This document shows, in pieces, positions 12,693-58,361 of a DNA stretch of 64,000 nt. Position numbers and translations under genes: made by a program. The notes beneath the pieces were generated by a model, which made no database searches, was not told where the DNA came from, and saw only the letters and a list, made by a program, of their open reading frames with translations. This stretch comes from a virus. The stretch lies in the IMG/VR virus record IMGVR_UViG_3300035660_000006; one strand, given 5' to 3'. Numbering within the stretch: the first letter of the stretch is position 1; each line of letters opens with the position of its first letter.

Positions 12693-13404
12693 TATGGATG
12701 ATAAACAAGTTGCAGATTTAGTAGATAAGATGATTGATGATTTTCTTGAAAAAGATGATAAGGAAAAAAATGATAACGTATTTTACCCCAGTGAGCTTCC
12801 TTACTGCAAAAGGAAAAATTATTACAGCAGAAGATGTAATATTCCCTTCGATGCCGAGACCAAGAGGCTCTTTCACATGGGAAATTTAATACATAATTTT
12901 ATAACTTTTTTGCTGAAAAAAAACTTTGAAGGAAAGTTGATAGATTCCGAGAGAAGCCTTACTGTTATTGCCGATGCCGAGCATGACATTGATATTAGGG
13001 GAAGGTTGGATAATCTTGTTATGATTAATGATGAAAGTGGAAGTGAAAAAACTATCTTTGAAGTGAAATCAACAGCCAACATCAGTTTCATGAAGGAAGC
13101 ACAGGAACATCATGTTATGCAAATAACACCTTACTTAAGAGCATTGCAAATGAAAAAAGGTTACATTGTCTATGTTGAAAAAAACACATTAAAAACAAAA
13201 GTTTTTCCAGTTGAATATAACAAAGAAATTTTTCTCAAGTTAGTAAACAGGGCAAAAGATATTGCAAAACATTTGAGGGAAAACACATTACCAGAGGCAG
13301 ATGGAAAGAAGAGTAAATGGGAATGTAATTACTGCTCGTATAAAACCCAATGTGATAACAATTATAATCCAAATGATACAAATGAAAAAAAAAGTAATGC
13401 TTAA
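12676..13404 (+). CDS. Cas4-like / RecB-family PD-(D/E)xK nuclease with 4Fe-4S cysteines
   Basis: N-terminal Cys (PYCKRK); D...EVK nuclease motifs; QxxxY; C-terminal CNYCSYKTQC cluster. Confidence 0.7.
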   Translation: MKEVNSMDDKQVADLVDKMIDDFLEKDDKEKNDNVFYPSELPYCKRKNYYSRRCNIPFDAETKRLFHMGNLIHNFITFLLKKNFEGKLIDSERSLTVIADAEHDIDIRGRLDNLVMINDESGSEKTIFEVKSTANISFMKEAQEHHVMQITPYLRALQMKKGYIVYVEKNTLKTKVFPVEYNKEIFLKLVNRAKDIAKHLRENTLPEADGKKSKWECNYCSYKTQCDNNYNPNDTNEKKSNA

Positions 13405-13645
13405 ATTTAATTCATACCAAAAGAGAATACTTCATGAATCTGATTATTGGTGGTTAACCTGCGAAAGAGTTGGTCAATCACTTAATGAGTTGAGCAAAAA
13501 AAGTGGGTTCAGCAATTATTGGACTAAAAAACAACTTGATGATTTAGTTCAAAAAAATATATTAATGATATTTCCTTATGGAAAACGATACAGATATGCA
13601 TATACAAAAGAATTCAAAGAAATTTTAGAAGAACTGCGAATGTAA
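13301..13645 (+). CDS. small HTH/wH-like protein (true start probably at the internal Met near 13384)
   Basis: ORF overlaps the Cas4-like gene out of frame; the C-terminal 80 aa look like a wH regulator. Confidence 0.4.
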   Translation: MERRVNGNVITARIKPNVITIIIQMIQMKKKVMLKFNSYQKRILHESDYWWLTCERVGQSLNELSKKSGFSNYWTKKQLDDLVQKNILMIFPYGKRYRYAYTKEFKEILEELRM

Positions 13646-13890
13646 TTTAAAGGCAAGAATCCCTGTCTTCCATGTCAAGTGGGTGGGTGCAATTCCCTTG
13701 CTATCCGAAAGGTAAAGGTTACAGAAATTAAAACAGTGCATAATAATGTGAAAGGTGTTTTGTGAACAGAAAATACCAAGTAGCAAAAACTATTATGCCT
13801 TCCTGAAGCCTTGACCACTTGCCTCTCGCCCATTCCCCAAGATTGGAGAAAGCAGGATATTGGGGTTAAATTCCCCACATTCGCACTATA
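13643..13890 (+). ncRNA. candidate structured non-coding RNA (class unknown; strand uncertain)
   Basis: about 250 nt with no ORF and GC well above surroundings; terminal 7-nt inverted repeat GCGAATG / CATTCGC; internal long-range complements CAAGTGG / CCACTTG; GGGTGCAATTCCC and TGGGGTTAAATTCCCCA hairpin-like motifs. Confidence 0.35.
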
Positions 13891-13949
13891 TTTTTTCTCT
13901 TGAATAGAAAATTGTTATAAATTTAAAGTTTAAAATTAAAAATTTAACT

Positions 13950-14915
13950 ATGACAAAAACAACACAATATGATGAAGATTTTTGGGAAACAAATTTCATA
14001 AAAAAAGTTTTGGTCGGTCTTGGAATATTAGTTTGTGCAGTTATTCTATTGAGTTTAGTAAGCAGTTTTTGGCAAGAAATTCCAGCAGGAAATGTTGGTG
14101 TCATGGAGACATTCGGAAAAGTAAGCCCAACAACCTATAATTCTGGGTTAGTTTTTCCAAAAAATCCTTTCGCAAGATTCAATATTTACAACATGAGAAT
14201 GCAGAAATTAAACATAGAAAATCTTGAAGCAAGTGATAAGGAAGGACAGTTGGTTTACGCAGATATTGTAATCAATTACAAAATAAAAGATAACAATTCT
14301 GCGAGAAGAATATTACTTGAGATAGGAAAACCATCTGATTATGTAGATATAATGGCATTAAAAGAAAAGACAACACAAGGTTTCAAGCAGACAACAGTGA
14401 ATTATGAAGCGATGGAAATTCTCGAAAAAAGACAGGAAGTAAGCGACAAAGCAAGGGATAATATTTTCAATCGTTTGCCCACAGATTTGCTTGATGTTGA
14501 ATCAATAAACATTGTTGACATTAGATTTACCCAAGCATTTGATGATGCGATTGAAAGAAAGAAAGTTGCAGAGCAATCAGCACTCGCATCAGAGAACGAA
14601 GTGAAAGTTGCAGAGGCAGAAGCAAAGAAATTAGTTGCACAAGCAGAAGGAGAAAAGAAGGTGACAATACTTAATGCAGAAGCACAGGCAGAACAAAAAT
14701 TAGTTATCGCAAAGGCAGAAGCACAATCATTAATGTTGCAGAAGGAACAAATTACTCCATTGATACTTCAGTTAAGACAGATTGAAGCACAAGTGAAAGC
14801 ATACGAGAAGTGGAATGGTCAGTTACCAACAATAATTTCAGGTCAAGGAAGCATTCCATTCATCAACATGAATTTTGATTCCCAACAATCAAAGATTAGT
14901 AGTGGGGGTGGTTAG
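13950..14915 (+). CDS. SPFH/band-7 (prohibitin/stomatin/HflK-like) membrane protein
   Basis: N-terminal TM; SPFH core (IPAGNVGVMETFGK...); Ala/Glu/Lys-rich coiled-coil tail. Confidence 0.75.
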   Translation: MTKTTQYDEDFWETNFIKKVLVGLGILVCAVILLSLVSSFWQEIPAGNVGVMETFGKVSPTTYNSGLVFPKNPFARFNIYNMRMQKLNIENLEASDKEGQLVYADIVINYKIKDNNSARRILLEIGKPSDYVDIMALKEKTTQGFKQTTVNYEAMEILEKRQEVSDKARDNIFNRLPTDLLDVESINIVDIRFTQAFDDAIERKKVAEQSALASENEVKVAEAEAKKLVAQAEGEKKVTILNAEAQAEQKLVIAKAEAQSLMLQKEQITPLILQLRQIEAQVKAYEKWNGQLPTIISGQGSIPFINMNFDSQQSKISSGGG

Positions 14916-28892: not shown

Positions 28893-29711
28893 ATGAATAA
28901 AAAAAATAGAATATTATTAGCAAAATTACTTGGTTATATACATTCAGATGGTTGTTTTGTTAATAGAGGTAACAATATTTTTAAAGTTCAATTTGATAAT
29001 GATGATTTTACTTTAATAAAAGATTTTTCGGATAGTTTTCAAAGGGTTTTTTTAGTAAAACCACATATTCATTCATATTTTAAAAATGATAAAAAACATT
29101 TTTTTGTTGGAAAACAAGACCAAAAAATTATTAAAATAATGAGATTATTTGATATTTTTTCATTTAATAAAAAAGAGAAATGTGCCTATCTTTCAGGTCT
29201 TTATGATGGTGATGGAAGTGTTAGTTTTGGATTTAAAAAAGATGGACAAATGAGTTTTAGAATTAGATTTCATAACAAGGATGCAAAACTTATAGAAACA
29301 GTTAAGAAATTTTTACAAGATATTGGAATTAAAAATTCAAAAATTTATTCAGAAAAAATAAGAGGTTATGGGAGTGGAATTTTTTATAATATTTCAATAA
29401 CTAATCAAAAAGATGCTAAAATTTTTTATGAAAATATTAAGTTAAAATCAAAACATAAAATGGTAGCATTAAAAAATTATTTAAAAATAATTAAACCATA
29501 TTCTTCTGATAAATATTCATTTAAATTGAAAGAAAAGGCAATAAAACTTCATAAACAAGGTTTTGGATGTAGAAAAATTGCAAAAATATTAAATGTGAGT
29601 TCTGTCAGAGTAACAAGATGGTATAAACAATTTGGTGATACAAAAAGATATAAAGGTTATCCTGCAAGATGGGATGTGGTAAAAGAAAAAGTTCTTTTCT
29701 TCAAAAAATAG
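28893..29711 (+). CDS. LAGLIDADG homing endonuclease with C-terminal HTH
   Basis: two LAGLIDADG motifs (LLAKLLGYIHSDGCF; AYLSGLYDGDGSV); C-terminal HTH GFGCRKIAKILNVSSVRVTRW. Confidence 0.8.
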   Translation: MNKKNRILLAKLLGYIHSDGCFVNRGNNIFKVQFDNDDFTLIKDFSDSFQRVFLVKPHIHSYFKNDKKHFFVGKQDQKIIKIMRLFDIFSFNKKEKCAYLSGLYDGDGSVSFGFKKDGQMSFRIRFHNKDAKLIETVKKFLQDIGIKNSKIYSEKIRGYGSGIFYNISITNQKDAKIFYENIKLKSKHKMVALKNYLKIIKPYSSDKYSFKLKEKAIKLHKQGFGCRKIAKILNVSSVRVTRWYKQFGDTKRYKGYPARWDVVKEKVLFFKK

Positions 29712-34380: not shown

Positions 34381-35499
34381 ATGTTAAAAAATATAAATAT
34401 GACTACAAAGGTTATAAAATGTGGTGTTGTCGGTCTAACCAACAATAAAAAAGAATGTTTGGACAGTGAATGGTCTAACTTTCAAGATTTTCTACAACTG
34501 AAAAATACTCTTTGGTGGAAGAATGATTGGGGTAAGAACATCTATTCTGCCAACAAACAACAGGCAGAAAGGTTCTACAAATCAATAGAGGAAGGAAAGG
34601 AATACCCAATTTCAATCAGAAAAGACCTAATACAGATTGAAAAAAAGGATACAAAACTCGCTAAATATTGGTTCAGAATGAGAGTTAAGTCAAAAAGAAA
34701 TCTATGGTTGGCAATAAAACCACACCAACCAATCTCTGATGATGTTGAATTTCAAGAGAGTAAATTACTTAAAAAGAATGGTCAATACTTCATCTATCTT
34801 ACTATTCAAAAGGAAATCAAAATAAAAAAATCATACTCAAACATACTCTCCATAGATTTAGGAGTGAAATGGATTGCTACTGTCTGTGACATGAAATCCA
34901 AAAGACCTGTTTTCTATGGGAAAGAGTTGAGAGGAATTAGAGGAAAACATTTCTATCTAAGAAGGAAAATTCAAAAGAAAAAGATAAGACAAATGGGAAA
35001 GTGGTTGGAAAATAACAAAGAAGAAAGAATAGTGAATGACTTAATACATAAAATTTCAAGAGATATTGTCAATAAAGCAAAGGAAACAAACTCCATGATT
35101 TGTTGGGGTGATATAAAAGGAATAAGGAAAAACAACAAAGGAAGAAAGTTCAACAGGAAATTGAATAGTTTTCCATTCTACAAATTGAAAGAGCAAATCA
35201 GATACAAAGCAGAATGGGAAGGAATAAAAGTTGTTGAAATTAGCGAAGCATGGACATCACAAATTTGTAATAAATGTAGTGAGAAGGGAACAAGAAATAA
35301 AGGTTTGTTCAAATGTAATAGTTGTGGATATGAGGATAATTCAGATAGGAATGGTAGTCTAAACATAGGCAAACGAGTTCTTGGGCAAGTCTCAAGAATA
35401 GGGGTATCTGTGAATATACCCAAAACTGAAGCAGAAAACATAAAGAATACAAAAATTAGAAATTCAGTAAGCGACTTCAGAAGCCACCTATTTCAATAG
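34381..35499 (+). CDS. tnpB: TnpB (IS200/IS605 OrfB) RNA-guided nuclease family, solo
   Basis: RuvC-I SIDLGVKWIATV; zinc finger CNKCSEKG...CNSCGYEDNSDRNGSLNIGKR; RuvC-III. Confidence 0.85.
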   Translation: MLKNINMTTKVIKCGVVGLTNNKKECLDSEWSNFQDFLQLKNTLWWKNDWGKNIYSANKQQAERFYKSIEEGKEYPISIRKDLIQIEKKDTKLAKYWFRMRVKSKRNLWLAIKPHQPISDDVEFQESKLLKKNGQYFIYLTIQKEIKIKKSYSNILSIDLGVKWIATVCDMKSKRPVFYGKELRGIRGKHFYLRRKIQKKKIRQMGKWLENNKEERIVNDLIHKISRDIVNKAKETNSMICWGDIKGIRKNNKGRKFNRKLNSFPFYKLKEQIRYKAEWEGIKVVEISEAWTSQICNKCSEKGTRNKGLFKCNSCGYEDNSDRNGSLNIGKRVLGQVSRIGVSVNIPKTEAENIKNTKIRNSVSDFRSHLFQ

Positions 35500-51212: not shown

Positions 51213-52040
51213 ATGAAAATATTCACTTGGACTAATCTTGCAATATTCATTCTCTTCGTTTCATTAATAGGATTAGGAATTTATACGATAAACAAACCAT
51301 CAGAAAAGTTCGAGCAGAAGAGTCCTGAAGAAGCGTATCTTAATTGGGTTTCCCACACAGAATATATTGCTGGTGATACTACTGGGCAGGGAATAATATC
51401 TGTAAGTGACTATAAAGGAAGACCTTTGAATGCTTCATGTCTGCTCTCGCTGGTTTATCCTGACAATACTTTTGTGTTTACTGATTACGCTATGAGTCCT
51501 TCTATCATCGCTGGAAACTACTATCGTATATTCACAGTTCCGAACACATTTGGGGTATATACAGAGTTCGTAAACTGTTCTGTCCAGTTAAATCCAGCAG
51601 TAAATATTTCTGGAAGCAAAAGCAATTCAATCCATGTCAACCCAGCATTTGATTTTCTTGTCAATATTTCACAGAACATAACAGACTTGAAGCAAGAGTT
51701 TGTTAATTTCACAATTGATGTGCAGAATAATTTTACATACACAAACAATCTGATAGATAATCTTAATGATAGTTTAGTAATAAATTTGAACAATACTAAC
51801 CAATTAATAATTAATTCCACAAATAATATATCGACAAGTATCACAAATTTCAGAAATGAGGCATACACTTGGTATATAGACATAATAAGCAGAATATACA
51901 ATTGTTGTGAGAGATGGATAGAAGAAATCGGCAAGTTGGGGACATTAGGTGGAAATATGATACAAAGACTACCAACTGGTGGTGGAACTTCGCAGACTAA
52001 TATGCCAAGTTGGTTAAAAAGAATAATTGGTGGTGATTAA
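51213..52040 (+). CDS. secreted N-glycosylation-rich protein, WVSHTEY family paralog
   Basis: WVSHTEYIAGDTTGQ...VYPDNT...FTVPNTFGVYTEFVNC. Confidence 0.65.
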   Translation: MKIFTWTNLAIFILFVSLIGLGIYTINKPSEKFEQKSPEEAYLNWVSHTEYIAGDTTGQGIISVSDYKGRPLNASCLLSLVYPDNTFVFTDYAMSPSIIAGNYYRIFTVPNTFGVYTEFVNCSVQLNPAVNISGSKSNSIHVNPAFDFLVNISQNITDLKQEFVNFTIDVQNNFTYTNNLIDNLNDSLVINLNNTNQLIINSTNNISTSITNFRNEAYTWYIDIISRIYNCCERWIEEIGKLGTLGGNMIQRLPTGGGTSQTNMPSWLKRIIGGD

Positions 52041-52885
52041 TTGCATTCATTAGAGAGAGAAGAAGAACAACAAAGTGGTAATTTAATTAGCGAGGGAGTC
52101 GCTGGGTGGAAAATGCTTTTCAATGCGATAAAAAGGAAAAAACCAGAGGAACAGCAATCACAACCGATTAATAATTAATGCGTATAAAGGCAGAAAAATT
52201 TAACTTCCGAGAATATCAGCAGGTATTTGATGACGAAGTTTTATATTTATAATTTCACTTTTTCCACTTTTTTATAGATTAAAATTATATGTATACAATC
52301 GTATTCAATTATTTAATTTTAAAATCCTAACAATTTTTATGGATTTTGAAAACATGGAACATTTATTAAGAGTTCTTATTCTTGTTTTATTACTAATTGT
52401 CCTAATCGCAATAATTGTAAAACTTAACCAGACTTGGCATCTCTTCGATGGTTGGTTCAGGTCTATAAGTTGCTGGTTATTTGGCTGTTGAAAGTTTAAA
52501 ATCTGACATCTTGACATTCACTGACAAGTTGTCATTTTCTATACCTTATAAATAAAATTTTCTTCAAAACTATGTTTATCTATGAAAGTGATTACCTTAT
52601 GATAATCACTGAATTAGCCTTTAAAAAATAAAATGTGAAAAACATGGCAACAGTCAATGATACACTCTTTTAAGTCATTATGGTTTTAAAGAGGTCATAA
52701 TTGACTGACATTGGAAATGGAGTAGGTGCTTTGTTCACTGGTATGGGTGCAAGTTTGTAAGTGAAAATTTGCAGACCACCAGCCATTAGCAGTGTTCATC
52801 ATACTACTCGCAATAGGAACAGGGGTTGGATAGCAGAGGAATTTGCCCAAATACATCCTTGCTTCTATTGGTAGAAGGGTCGGTG

Positions 52886-52916
52886 CAAAGGTTTAAACCT
52901 TTGAATAGACTTTTTT
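52886..52916 (+). terminator. perfect 18-nt palindrome CAAAGGTTTAAACCTTTG followed by a T6 run (terminator-like or protein-binding site)
   Basis: direct reading; lies in an ORF-free region. Confidence 0.4.
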
Positions 52917-53050
52917 CCAAGTAGTCAGAATCGATGGGTTCTACCCCCAAGCGTAGAATGGCTTTTCTTTCTTTTTCTATTTTGTTAATAAATTAGACCT
53001 ATTACTCGATAAAAAACCTATATTCTAAAGTATATAAATATTTAAATACT

Positions 53051-53066
53051 ACTACGATAGAGTAGT
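53051..53066 (+). promoter_or_regulatory. palindrome ACTAC-GATAGA-GTAGT ending 5 nt before the endonuclease ATG
   Basis: related copies at 59636-59651 and 28846-28860. Confidence 0.5.
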
Positions 53067-53071
53067 GAAAT

Positions 53072-53875
53072 ATGAAGAAGTGTAAATATTGTAAGAACGA
53101 ACTTAAAAACCCTAAAAGAAGTTTTTGTAATCAAAAATGTTGGCATAGTTATTATTCTAAATATTATTCTGGAAAAAATAATCCTTGTTTTGGTATTAAA
53201 AAAAATGGAGAATACAAAAAATGTTCAAATTGTGGAAAAAAAATATGGGTTGTAAATAATAGATTGAGAAGACTAAATAATTATTTTTGTAATAGAAAAT
53301 GTTGGAGAAAATCAGAAAAGGAGTCAATAAAAGTCTTATGTAAATTTTGTGGAAAAGAAAAAATAACATACCCTTATGATAAGAATATAAAGAGAAATCA
53401 TTTTTGTAGTCAAAAATGTAAAGCAAAATGGCAGAGTGAAAATCTCAATGGAAAAAATAATAATAATTTTAATAATTATTGGAATAATCAACAAAAAAAA
53501 TCTCTTGGCGAAAAACAAAAAATAAGATTAAGAGAACATCCAGAAAAACATCCAAATAGAATTCTTGCAAAAAATGGACATATATCAACACCACAAAAAC
53601 AACTCTTCAAATTAATCAAATATTATTATCCTTCTGCTGAATTAAATCATAGAGTTATAACTAAAAATGGGTTTGGGCAAAGACATGCTGATGTTGGTCT
53701 CCCAGAATTTAAACTTGACATCGAATTTGATGGAGATTATTGGCACAACCCAGAAGATGATAGAGAAAGAGACCAAGAACTTCTCGAAGTTGGGTGGAAA
53801 ACTATTAGATTTGGTTATAAAGATTTGAAGACACCAGAAATGATAATTAAGAAAATAAAAGAATGGTTAAGTTAA
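53072..53875 (+). CDS. homing-endonuclease-like protein: three FCS-type zinc fingers plus a Vsr/DUF559-like PD-(D/E)xK domain
   Basis: CxxC...FC(N/S)xKC three times; C-terminal FDGDYWHNPEDD...GWKTIRF. Confidence 0.65.
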   Translation: MKKCKYCKNELKNPKRSFCNQKCWHSYYSKYYSGKNNPCFGIKKNGEYKKCSNCGKKIWVVNNRLRRLNNYFCNRKCWRKSEKESIKVLCKFCGKEKITYPYDKNIKRNHFCSQKCKAKWQSENLNGKNNNNFNNYWNNQQKKSLGEKQKIRLREHPEKHPNRILAKNGHISTPQKQLFKLIKYYYPSAELNHRVITKNGFGQRHADVGLPEFKLDIEFDGDYWHNPEDDRERDQELLEVGWKTIRFGYKDLKTPEMIIKKIKEWLS

Positions 53876-57063: not shown

Positions 57064-57387
57064 TTGAAGAGATTGGAATTTATTAAAAATAATACTTCAA
57101 CAAAATTAAACACACCATATTTTATTATTGTTCATAGCATAGCAAGAAACATGGCAAGACCATTAACATTCCCAATTGAAGTCAAGACTGGGAAAAGACA
57201 GACAAGGGAATTTGAACTCGGAGAACTCATTCAAGAATTAGAGGAAGCACATATTAAAATTAACGAGATAGAACAGCAGATTGCCCAGAATTATTCAATA
57301 GATATTCCACTCAACCAGCAAGGACAGGCTATTGTATTTGATTTCAATAATCCAAAGCAAGGTATGGAAGACAGATTCAAATTTTAA
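57064..57387 (+). CDS. hypothetical protein upstream of the endonuclease gene
   Basis: ORF. Confidence 0.4.
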   Translation: MKRLEFIKNNTSTKLNTPYFIIVHSIARNMARPLTFPIEVKTGKRQTREFELGELIQELEEAHIKINEIEQQIAQNYSIDIPLNQQGQAIVFDFNNPKQGMEDRFKF

Positions 57388-58361
57388 TGGTGAAAAAAAC
57401 GAATTGCAAAGAAATAAAAATTAATAGAGAAGAATTATTTAAAAAATATGTTATTGAAAAAAAATCAACACCAAAAATTGCTAATGAGGTTAATAGTAAT
57501 AGAGAAACAATTAGAAAACTTTTACATTTTTATAAAATACCAATTAAAATACCTATTAAAGAAACAATCAGTAAAGAAGAATTAGAAAAATTATATATTA
57601 ATAAAAAAATGTCTTGTAACGAAATAGCAGAAAAATTTAAAACTAATAGAGAAACTATAAGAAAATTACTTCATTTTTATAAAATTAAAATACAACCTTC
57701 TTCAGAAAGATTGAAAGGTAATAAATTTATGTTAGGTAAAAAACATTCAGAAGAAACTAAGATAAAAATAAGTCTTAAACATAAAGGTAAAAAATGTCCC
57801 TTTTTATCAGAATACAATAAAAAATATAAAAGTCAACAAATGAAAGAAAGATGGGAGAACCCATTTTATAGGAAACAACAATCTGAAAGTATGAAAAAAA
57901 ATAATCCAATGAAAAATCCAATTTTTAGAAAAAAGGTTAGTTTGTCAAAAATTGGAGATAAAAACCCATGTAAAAGACCTGAAGTAAAAGAAAAACTAAG
58001 AAAATTTAGAATGACACAAAAATTTCCTTTAAAAAATACAACAATTGAAACATTATTACAGAATGAACTTGAAAAAAGAAACATTCAATTTACTCCTCAT
58101 AAAACAATTTTAAATATAACACAACCAGATGTTTTTATCGAACCAAACATTTGTGTTTATTGTGATGGAGATTTTTGGCATAGTAATCCTAAATTTTATG
58201 ATAGAAATAATTTGAAATATAAAAGTCAAATAAACAATTTAAAAAATGATGAAAAAAATAATATAATTTTAAAAGAAAATAACTATAAAGTTTTTAGATT
58301 TTGGGAAAATGATATTTTAAATAATGTTTCAAAATGTGTAGAAGAGATAATAAATAATTGA
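57387..58361 (+). CDS. homing-endonuclease-like protein: HTH repeats plus NUMOD3 motifs plus Vsr/DUF559-like domain
   Basis: duplicated NRETIRKLLHFYKI; NUMOD3-like HSEETKIKIS...NPMKNPIFRKKVS; C-terminal CVYCDGDFWHSNP...RFWEND. Confidence 0.65.
   Translation: MVKKTNCKEIKINREELFKKYVIEKKSTPKIANEVNSNRETIRKLLHFYKIPIKIPIKETISKEELEKLYINKKMSCNEIAEKFKTNRETIRKLLHFYKIKIQPSSERLKGNKFMLGKKHSEETKIKISLKHKGKKCPFLSEYNKKYKSQQMKERWENPFYRKQQSESMKKNNPMKNPIFRKKVSLSKIGDKNPCKRPEVKEKLRKFRMTQKFPLKNTTIETLLQNELEKRNIQFTPHKTILNITQPDVFIEPNICVYCDGDFWHSNPKFYDRNNLKYKSQINNLKNDEKNNIILKENNYKVFRFWENDILNNVSKCVEEIINN

Follow-up and report, generated by a model that had tools for sequence, protein, structure and literature searches.

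A probable archaeal-type tRNA-Gly(UCC) gene with a 178-nt intron on an AT-rich mobile element

Intron-containing tRNA genes are textbook knowledge in archaea, tRNA genes are also known from mobile elements, and one archaeal virus, HGTV-1, carries a tRNA gene with an intron (PMC13532342). Here we describe a locus from the IMG/VR virus record IMGVR_UViG_3300035660_000006, of which a stretch of 64,000 nucleotides (nt) was analysed; this whole stretch is called the window below. We are fairly confident that positions 13636-13885 on its + strand are an archaeal-type tRNA-Gly(UCC) gene, interrupted by a 178-nt intron between tRNA positions 37 and 38 and located on an AT-rich archaeal mobile element.

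The archaeal tRNA motif known as bulge-helix-bulge (BHB) comprises a helix of four base pairs (bp), which includes the first two anticodon nucleotides, and two flanking 3-nt bulges that hold the splice sites (PMC4090602). Reviewed archaeal tRNA introns range from 11 to 129 nt in length, with medians of 12-25 nt (PMC4090602). In Haloferax volcanii, the introns of tRNA-Trp and tRNA-Met measure 103 and 75 nt, respectively (PMC4090602, PMC7714728). Haloferax tRNA introns span 31-103 nt, and the Haloferax ligase circularises them after excision (PMC7714728). Among viruses, the haloarchaeal tailed virus HGTV-1 possesses 34-36 tRNA genes, one of which contains an intron, and the bridging of codon usage is the usual rationale for such genes (PMC13532342).

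The window gene is reminiscent of archaeal BHB-spliced tRNAs in several respects. Its intron lies at 37/38, its 4-bp helix contains the first two anticodon nucleotides and, as modelled, would be flanked by 3-nt bulges, no CCA is encoded and the discriminator base is A73. As for these tRNAs, a host splicing endonuclease (EndA) and ligase would be expected to act on the transcript, and the intron would be circularised. However, the intron is far longer, no box C/D RNA resides within it, the motif is relaxed at the 5' bulge and the T loop has an A at position 56. Moreover, whereas the archaeal genes are chromosomal, this one sits on a mobile element. In this last respect it resembles HGTV-1, likewise an archaeal mobile element with an intron-bearing tRNA gene. 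Unlike HGTV-1, the window carries a single tRNA gene in 64 kb, with a very long intron, has no recognised capsid or terminase, and encodes neither an RNA ligase nor a CCA-adding enzyme.

A cloverleaf in two exons

The segment 13636-13885 (+) differs from its surroundings in composition. Its GC content is 0.42 compared with 0.31 across the whole window, a value that just 0.12% of the window's 250-nt windows match. The initial annotation had described a GC-enriched segment without open reading frames (ORFs) between a Cas4-like operon and an SPFH gene. The enrichment is borne out, and the segment is indeed ORF-poor, but not strictly ORF-free: two mechanical minus-strand ORFs of 53 and 67 amino acids (aa; the latter with a GTG start) overlap it, and an 82-aa ORF intrudes from upstream.

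Folding of the + strand yielded a minimum free energy (MFE) of -71.3 kcal/mol and a z-score of -3.25, with 0/200 shuffles as good, whereas the - strand reached z = -1.41. The central proposal of the initial annotation, a folded + strand RNA with a closing helix and defined hairpins, is correct. The closing helix consists of a terminal inverted repeat, GCGAATG at 13636-13642 and CATTCGC at 13878-13884, in which 7/7 pairs are Watson-Crick. Both proposed hairpins are present, TGGGG-TTAAATT-CCCCA at 13861-13877 and GGGTGCAATTCCC at 13685-13697. A further pair of complements, CAAGTGG and CCACTTG, does occur, at 13676-13682 and 13815-13821 (the second had been placed at 13825), but the two strands pair in neither the MFE nor the centroid fold. 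By itself, the 7-bp terminal repeat is not significant; the combination of features is beyond chance.

The closing helix and its adjacent hairpin correspond to the acceptor stem and T arm of a tRNA, which leaves the proposed SRP-like (signal recognition particle), riboswitch-like or element-specific non-coding RNA without backing. The 5' exon (13636-13672, +), as read from the sequence and recovered in the ARAGORN cloverleaf and an Rfam half-match, begins with the acceptor strand GCGAATG (13636-42), followed by U8 and A9. The D arm ATTT-AAAGGCAA-GAAT (13645-60) and C26 come next, then the 5' strand of the anticodon stem, CCTGT (13662-66), and the loop nucleotides C32 U33 U34 C35 C36 A37 (13667-72) with the anticodon TCC at 13669-71. 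The 3' exon (13851-13885, +) resumes with A38 (13851) and the anticodon-stem strand GCAGG (13852-56). It continues through a variable loop ATAT (13857-60), the T arm TGGGG-TTAAATT-CCCCA (13861-77) and the acceptor strand CATTCGC (13878-84) to the discriminator A13885.

All 21/21 stem pairs form, two of them as G-U: seven of seven in the acceptor stem (all Watson-Crick), 4/4 in the D stem, 5/5 in the anticodon stem and 5/5 in the T stem. The gene has the conserved nucleotides U8, A14, A15:U48, G18 G19, A21, U33, A37, G53:C61, U54 U55 and A58 and retains about 13 conserved tertiary positions. The anticodon stem CCUGU/GCAGG with its 7-nt loop CUUCCAA (U33, purine 37) arises only after removal of 13673-13850. 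The resulting spliced 72-mer is GCGAATGTAATTTAAAGGCAAGAATCCCTGTCTTCCAAGCAGGATATTGGGGTTAAATTCCCCACATTCGCA; its cloverleaf has an energy of -21.4 kcal/mol versus an MFE of -23.0, a gap of 1.6 kcal/mol.

The acceptor and anticodon nucleotides G1:C72, C2:G71, G3:C70, A73, C35 and C36 match the archaeal and eukaryal glycine identity set. ARAGORN also offered Ser(AGA) with an intron at 33/34. We rejected this placement because of the glycine-type identity nucleotides just listed, together with the short variable arm and the discordant register of the splice motif.

Each exon was scanned against Rfam (4227 families) as a stretch ending at the splice site. For both, tRNA (RF00005) was the best of all families. 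The 5' half matched model positions 1-36 at 14.0 bits, starting exactly at 13636, and the 3' half matched positions 37-71 at 19.6 bits (E = 0.018), ending exactly at 13885. The summed scores amount to 33.6 bits compared with a gathering score of 29, with the 12 base pairs linking the halves uncounted. ARAGORN calls a 72-nt tRNA at its default threshold once the insert is removed in silico, and it assigns Gly(TCC) for splice junctions after loop position 5, 6 or 7.

The splice motif, the intron and a homologous tRNA

In the canonical BHB geometry, cleavage takes place after the second nucleotide of each bulge. On the 5' side of the window gene, C32 U33 U34 C35 (13667-70) form the helix strand and C36 A37 U (13671-73) the 3-nt bulge, with the predicted splice site after 13672. 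The 3' side (13841-13851, +) consists of GAU (13841-43), an unpaired U13844, GGAG (13845-48) and the 3-nt bulge AAA (13849-51), with the predicted splice site after 13850. In a constrained fold, the central helix CUUC:GGAG (13667-70 with 13845-48) has three Watson-Crick pairs and one G-U pair, and an inner helix joins GUC (13674-76) to GAU (13841-43). The 3' bulge is clean and abuts the anticodon stem. As modelled, the motif would be a relaxed BHB. Its central helix contains the first two anticodon nucleotides, in the same register as in the described archaeal layout (PMC4090602). Cutting in this register gives a loop of exactly 7 nt, CUUCCAA, with the anticodon UCC. The predicted exon junction joins CTGTCTTCCA to AGCAGGATAT, and the predicted junction of a circular intron joins GATTGGAGAA to TGTCAAGTGG.

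The intron itself (13673-13850, +; 178 nt; GC 0.42), which was delimited with the intron option of ARAGORN, is predicted to be rod-like. Predicted helices pair 13711-24 with 13803-16, GCATAATA with TATTATGC in a perfect 8-bp stem (13738-45/13791-98), and GGTGTTTT with AAAATACC (13754-61/13770-77). Folded alone, the intron gave z = -1.76 on the + strand (9/200 shuffles) and +0.23 on the - strand. It matched no Rfam family and has no further copy inside the window. No intron homologue was found in viral, phage and plasmid collections; an intron 24-mer had 0 matches in viral contigs, and BLAST against phages and plasmids returned chance matches only.

Several known intron and RNA classes were considered and rejected. 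A search for box C/D, H/ACA and K-turn motifs gave no convincing example, and an intron-borne box C/D RNA such as that of euryarchaeal tRNA-Trp is not supported by a lone CUGA (13803-06) with no RUGAUGA C box. A group I intron found no Intron_gpI match at E <= 10, and in the register that yields a sensible tRNA both the 5' exon and the intron end in A, whereas a group I intron follows a U and ends in G. For transfer-messenger RNA (tmRNA), ARAGORN searches were negative at default and relaxed thresholds, and pair 3:70 is G:C, not G3:U70. No SRP RNA or riboswitch family reached the gathering score or E <= 10.

A 20-mer across the T arm had 0 matches in viral contigs, 0 in reference-genome contigs and four in JGI metagenomes. 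Two of the four are relevant and fall on the contigs L136 and L137. There, positions 573-685 and 168-280, respectively, are recognised by Rfam as a tRNA (49.6 bits), even though the anticodon loop contains an insert, which measures 46 nt in the Rfam alignment and 42 nt as an ARAGORN intron. The T arm TGGGG-TTAAATT-CCCCA is identical to that of the window, and both tRNAs share the junction of GGAG, NAA and anticodon stem. Over 38 nt, window positions 13842-13879 are 87% identical to L136 642-679, and the anticodon-stem pair 29:41 shows a compensatory difference between the two (U-A in the window, A-U in L136).

In L136, only the canonical register pairs (CUCC:GGAG). It yields the anticodon CCA, which fits a G1-G3 acceptor stem and an adjacent gene for tryptophanyl-tRNA synthetase (TrpRS). 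On the strength of this register, the acceptor stem and the neighbouring TrpRS gene, the L136/L137 gene is probably a tRNA-Trp(CCA) with a 42-nt intron at 37/38, and the agreement validates the splice register chosen for the window. The ARAGORN label for the same tRNA is Gly(CCC), with the intron placed at 34/35. There is no GG in its D loop, and position 56 of its T loop is an A. Both contigs are chromosomal, with TrpRS and glycyl-tRNA synthetase (GlyRS) genes and further tRNAs, one of which has a 69-nt intron; the nearest relative of the L136 GlyRS, at 52% identity, belongs to a Methanosarcinales metagenome-assembled genome (MAG). The L136 gene thus differs from that of the window in its short intron, its acceptor stem, D arm and anticodon, its chromosomal setting beside aminoacyl-tRNA synthetase genes and its GC content of 38-39%.

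A number of observations speak against a functional, spliced tRNA. Within the cloverleaf, T-loop position 56, a C in nearly all tRNAs, is an A, and the D stem (AUUU/GAAU) is weak, with A:U at 10:25. Within the motif, one unpaired U (13844) lies opposite the 5' bulge CAU (13671-73), and no more than 3 bp make up the inner helix. Without constraints, the MFE fold favours a shifted register, U33-A37:UGGAG, and the constrained fold of cloverleaf plus motif is 6 kcal/mol less stable than the MFE. With its 178 nt, the intron exceeds the reviewed range (PMC4090602). The upstream 82-aa ORF, an orphan, stops at 13645 and so overlaps the tRNA gene and its closing helix by 10 nt. No diverged orthologue of the locus was found, the closest relatives carrying other content or diverging earlier. 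Standard searches were negative as well: Rfam at the gathering score gave no match in the whole 64-kb window, a permissive Rfam scan (13400-14100, E <= 10) gave no whole-gene match and only noise (Lnt, rli48, ctRNA, U4; E > 1), and default ARAGORN found neither tRNA nor tmRNA in the window. ARAGORN sees the intron-containing gene only at a relaxed threshold, at which 0.19-0.28 false calls arise per shuffled window.

Some of these points can be answered. The identical T arm of the L136 tRNA indicates that A56 is a feature of a real tRNA. Infernal overlooks the whole gene only because of the 178-nt insert. The initial annotation, which could fit no known family, was right for the gene as a whole; the Rfam/Infernal scan it recommended identifies the tRNA family only when the exons are taken separately. 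With the intron option and a relaxed threshold, ARAGORN recovers this cloverleaf with its 178-nt intron as the sole call in 64 kb. That detection alone is weak evidence because the setting is permissive, with 19 calls in 100 and 138 calls in 500 dinucleotide-shuffled windows. A central helix with 4/4 pairs in the canonical splice register accompanied only 8/114 false intron calls (about 7%), or 8/500 shuffled windows. The real call, moreover, falls in one of only a few ORF-poor, GC-rich gaps in the window, shares its strand with the neighbouring genes, stops 6 nt short of a T6 run and has the Infernal half-matches behind it.

The same data bear on whether the locus could instead encode a free-standing structured RNA of 250 nt, SRP-like, riboswitch-like or specific to the element, whose tRNA-like ends are coincidental. 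The + strand z-score of -3.25, the missing full-length family match and the false positives of relaxed tRNA finders would all be compatible with such an RNA. We nevertheless regard it as very improbable: each end independently selects tRNA as its best Rfam family with nucleotide-exact boundaries, the spliced sequence passes ARAGORN at default settings, the T arm and junction have homologous counterparts in a real tRNA, and SRP, riboswitch, tmRNA and group I signals are all missing. The best reading of the GC-rich segment is that of a familiar type of gene in a rare form, not of a new class of RNA.

The carrier element and its relatives

The window has a GC content of 31% and encodes a full archaeal-type MCM helicase, a methyltransferase, a Cas4-like nuclease, SPFH, MT-A70, ParB and TnpB, as well as glycosyltransferases, a LAGLIDADG protein and many orphans. 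The carrier is an archaeal mobile element, either a virus or plasmid-like, and its MCM helicase points to an archaeal host. About 60 window ORFs included no recognisable capsid, terminase, EndA or RtcB, and ARAGORN, in default and relaxed modes, found no other tRNA in the 64-kb window. Two Logan assemblies from independent sequencing runs contain the locus at 100% identity, so it is no assembly artefact. An identical MCM protein is encoded on a 73-kb JGI contig.

The element also contains several selfish nucleases: a free-standing LAGLIDADG endonuclease with a helix-turn-helix (HTH) domain at 28893-29711 (+), a TnpB/Cas12f-like IS605 OrfB protein at 34381-35499 (+) and a NUMOD3/Vsr-like endonuclease at 57387-58361 (+).

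Sister elements share the synteny from MCM to SPFH, with identities of 39-88% for MCM and 52-93% for SPFH. Upstream of SPFH, their gap of 240-290 nt holds no tRNA and a different conserved element of ~170 nt. One relative, whose MCM is 88% identical, departs from the window sequence after Cas4, and more distant MCM relatives are without the locus. Similarity to the relatives resumes in block 13890-13913, right after the tRNA at the region where its T-run starts, with 92% identity to the sister contig L051. This exact resumption places the tRNA at a module junction.

The element occupying the slot in the sisters (L051 644-806; L053 3745-3926; L057 904-1081) is ORF-free and about 165-180 nt long. 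Its ends are conserved, ATGGGRAAAG at one side and ATTCCCAT followed by a T-run at the other, and it contains internal TCAAAG/TCAAGG repeats. The three versions are mutually homologous, with alignment scores of 82-108 against about 23 for shuffled sequences. No Rfam family matched, and the 70 matches of its pattern in viral contigs were all spurious. It may be a small RNA or a set of protein-binding repeats.

The relative whose MCM is 88% identical bears another trace of the locus. Its Cas4-like gene finishes with ACTGCGAGTGTAATTTAAA (L218 13680-13698 and L219 8225-8243), which matches 18/19 nt of window 13633-13651, comprising 3 nt ahead of the tRNA and the initial 16 nt of the tRNA itself; the remainder of the tRNA is missing there. 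Recombination within the tRNA gene may have left this sequence as a scar.

Such exchange raises the question of a disrupted and decaying tRNA gene, in which insertion or recombination had placed an unrelated 178-nt segment into the anticodon loop, leaving it there as the scar of a modular exchange or an integration event. The position is a recombination hot spot, where the closest relatives differ upstream and similarity returns exactly at 13890. The 18/19-nt remnant at the end of the Cas4-like gene, A56, the weak D stem and the ORF overlap would also suit a gene in decay. However, all four stems are intact without a mismatch, and about 13 tertiary positions have been kept. In exactly the canonical register, the insert provides for a 4-bp helix and predicted 3-nt bulges, as seen in about 7% of false intron calls, and this register produces a precise 7-nt loop. 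The A56 T arm recurs in an Rfam-confirmed tRNA of a cellular archaeon. Furthermore, the insert has no terminal inverted repeats, target duplication or second copy in the window. Taken together, decay appears improbable to us.

A rather less remote alternative, but still an unlikely one, is that the intron is the real payload and the tRNA is secondary or dispensable. The tRNA exons and BHB would then serve as a processing cassette, from which EndA and ligase release a stable, probably circular RNA of 178 nt that might act in regulation, in anti-defence or as a protein sponge. The length of the intron, ~10 times the typical archaeal value and past the reviewed range (PMC4090602), is suggestive, as are its GC content of 0.42, equal to that of the exons in a 0.31 window, and its long predicted helices with perfect 8-bp stems. 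The archaeal ligase is known to circularise excised introns (PMC7714728), tRNA-Trp introns are known to harbour box C/D RNAs (PMC4090602), and related elements hold the conserved ~170-nt non-coding element at the same position upstream of SPFH. Against this, the intron alone folds just modestly better than its shuffles (z = -1.76, 9/200), it contains no known motif (no C box, one CUGA, no Rfam match), and viral, phage and plasmid collections held no homologue. The retention of nearly all conserved nucleotides argues for selection on the tRNA.

A local alignment of the intron with the slot element of L051 scored 37 versus 21 +/- 3.3 (0/300 shuffles). Homology between the two was nevertheless rejected as unproven, since an nhmmer profile gave no match and global alignment stayed at chance (z = 0.8-1.25).

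In its most far-reaching form, to which we assign the same low probability, the payload idea holds that the element harnesses the tRNA splicing of its host to produce a stable circle of ~178 nt of RNA, an archaeal counterpart of tricRNA cassettes. The tRNA body would then be mainly a scaffold for promoter, processing and folding. Because sister elements fill the same slot with a different small-RNA gene, the slot could be a swappable 'RNA cargo' position. Circles derived from tRNA introns, namely archaeal circular introns and metazoan tricRNAs, are described in PMC7714728 and PMC4536317. By analogy, the structured 178-nt intron of the window, if spliced, would be circularised by the same machinery.

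A tRNA-Gly(UCC) gene is the reading we prefer, and tRNA genes are a recurrent cargo of the element family, given that sisters carry a tRNA-Met(CAT). This intron-less gene scores 59.7 bits with Rfam and lies between the MCM and DUF6847 genes (L053 2501-2573; also L054 444-516 and L055 2501-2573).

Two further non-coding regions of the window deserve mention. Upstream of the SPFH gene, a TATA-like TTATAAAT occupies 13915-22, 28-35 nt ahead of the ATG (region 13914-13950), with the conserved block 13890-13913 just upstream. The position of this box suggests an archaeal SPFH mRNA that is leaderless or nearly so. Positions 52690-52965 (+), inside an ORF-free gap (52040-53072), form the GC-richest 250-nt stretch of the window (0.43). 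Here the + strand folds with an MFE of -95.7 kcal/mol (z = -4.90, 0/200 shuffles; centroid close to the MFE structure) and the - strand with z = -1.8. The stretch ends in a T-rich run, lies upstream of a Zn-ribbon/Vsr-like endonuclease ORF (53072-53875) and has no Rfam family match. As a candidate for an unknown structured RNA, it is stronger than the segment 13636-13885.

Proposed processing and implications

The flanks of the tRNA gene offer candidate expression signals. A T6 run at 13891-13896 (+), 6 nt past the discriminator base, is likely the archaeal oligo-T termination signal for the transcript, judging from its sequence and position. Upstream, AT-rich ATATGCATATACAAAA at 13594-13609 (+), 27-42 nt ahead of the tRNA 5' end and inside the 3' end of the upstream ORF, could possibly be a TATA-like promoter element; since the entire window is AT-rich, it is weak evidence of a promoter.

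We propose that the gene is transcribed with a short leader and terminated at the T6 run. RNase P and tRNase Z would trim the ends, and CCA would be added. The BHB motif would be built from the anticodon stem, the 4-bp helix C32-C35:GGAG and a 3-nt bulge on either side of that helix, and host EndA would cut it after 13672 and after 13850. A host RNA ligase would then join the exons into a 72-nt tRNA with the anticodon loop CUUCCAA, and it would probably circularise the rod-like intron too. As the element encodes neither endonuclease nor ligase, those of the host would have to process the RNA. Once aminoacylated, the mature tRNA would decode GGA and GGG. Glycine codons in the window ORFs comprise 327 GGA, 280 GGT, 125 GGG and 46 GGC, making GGA (327/778) the commonest. 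This preference fits the usual codon-bridging rationale for tRNAs on mobile elements, by which the gene may benefit its carrier. The long intron may simply persist without function, give rise to a stable circular RNA, or shield the gene from recombination or targeting, a protective role of tRNA introns that has been reviewed before (PMC4090602).

The gene is unusual for the length of its intron, its location on a mobile element, its relaxed motif and the A56 of its T loop, and also because it escapes standard tools. This case shows that long introns hide tRNA genes of archaeal mobile elements from standard pipelines such as Rfam cmscan and default ARAGORN. Genes hidden in this way affect estimates of viral and plasmid tRNA content as well as codon-usage arguments. 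They also matter for host prediction, because a BHB intron points to an archaeal host. If true, the 178-nt intron extends the reported length range of archaeal tRNA introns, and the locus offers a tractable substrate for exploring how far the archaeal splicing endonuclease tolerates relaxed motifs and large inserts.

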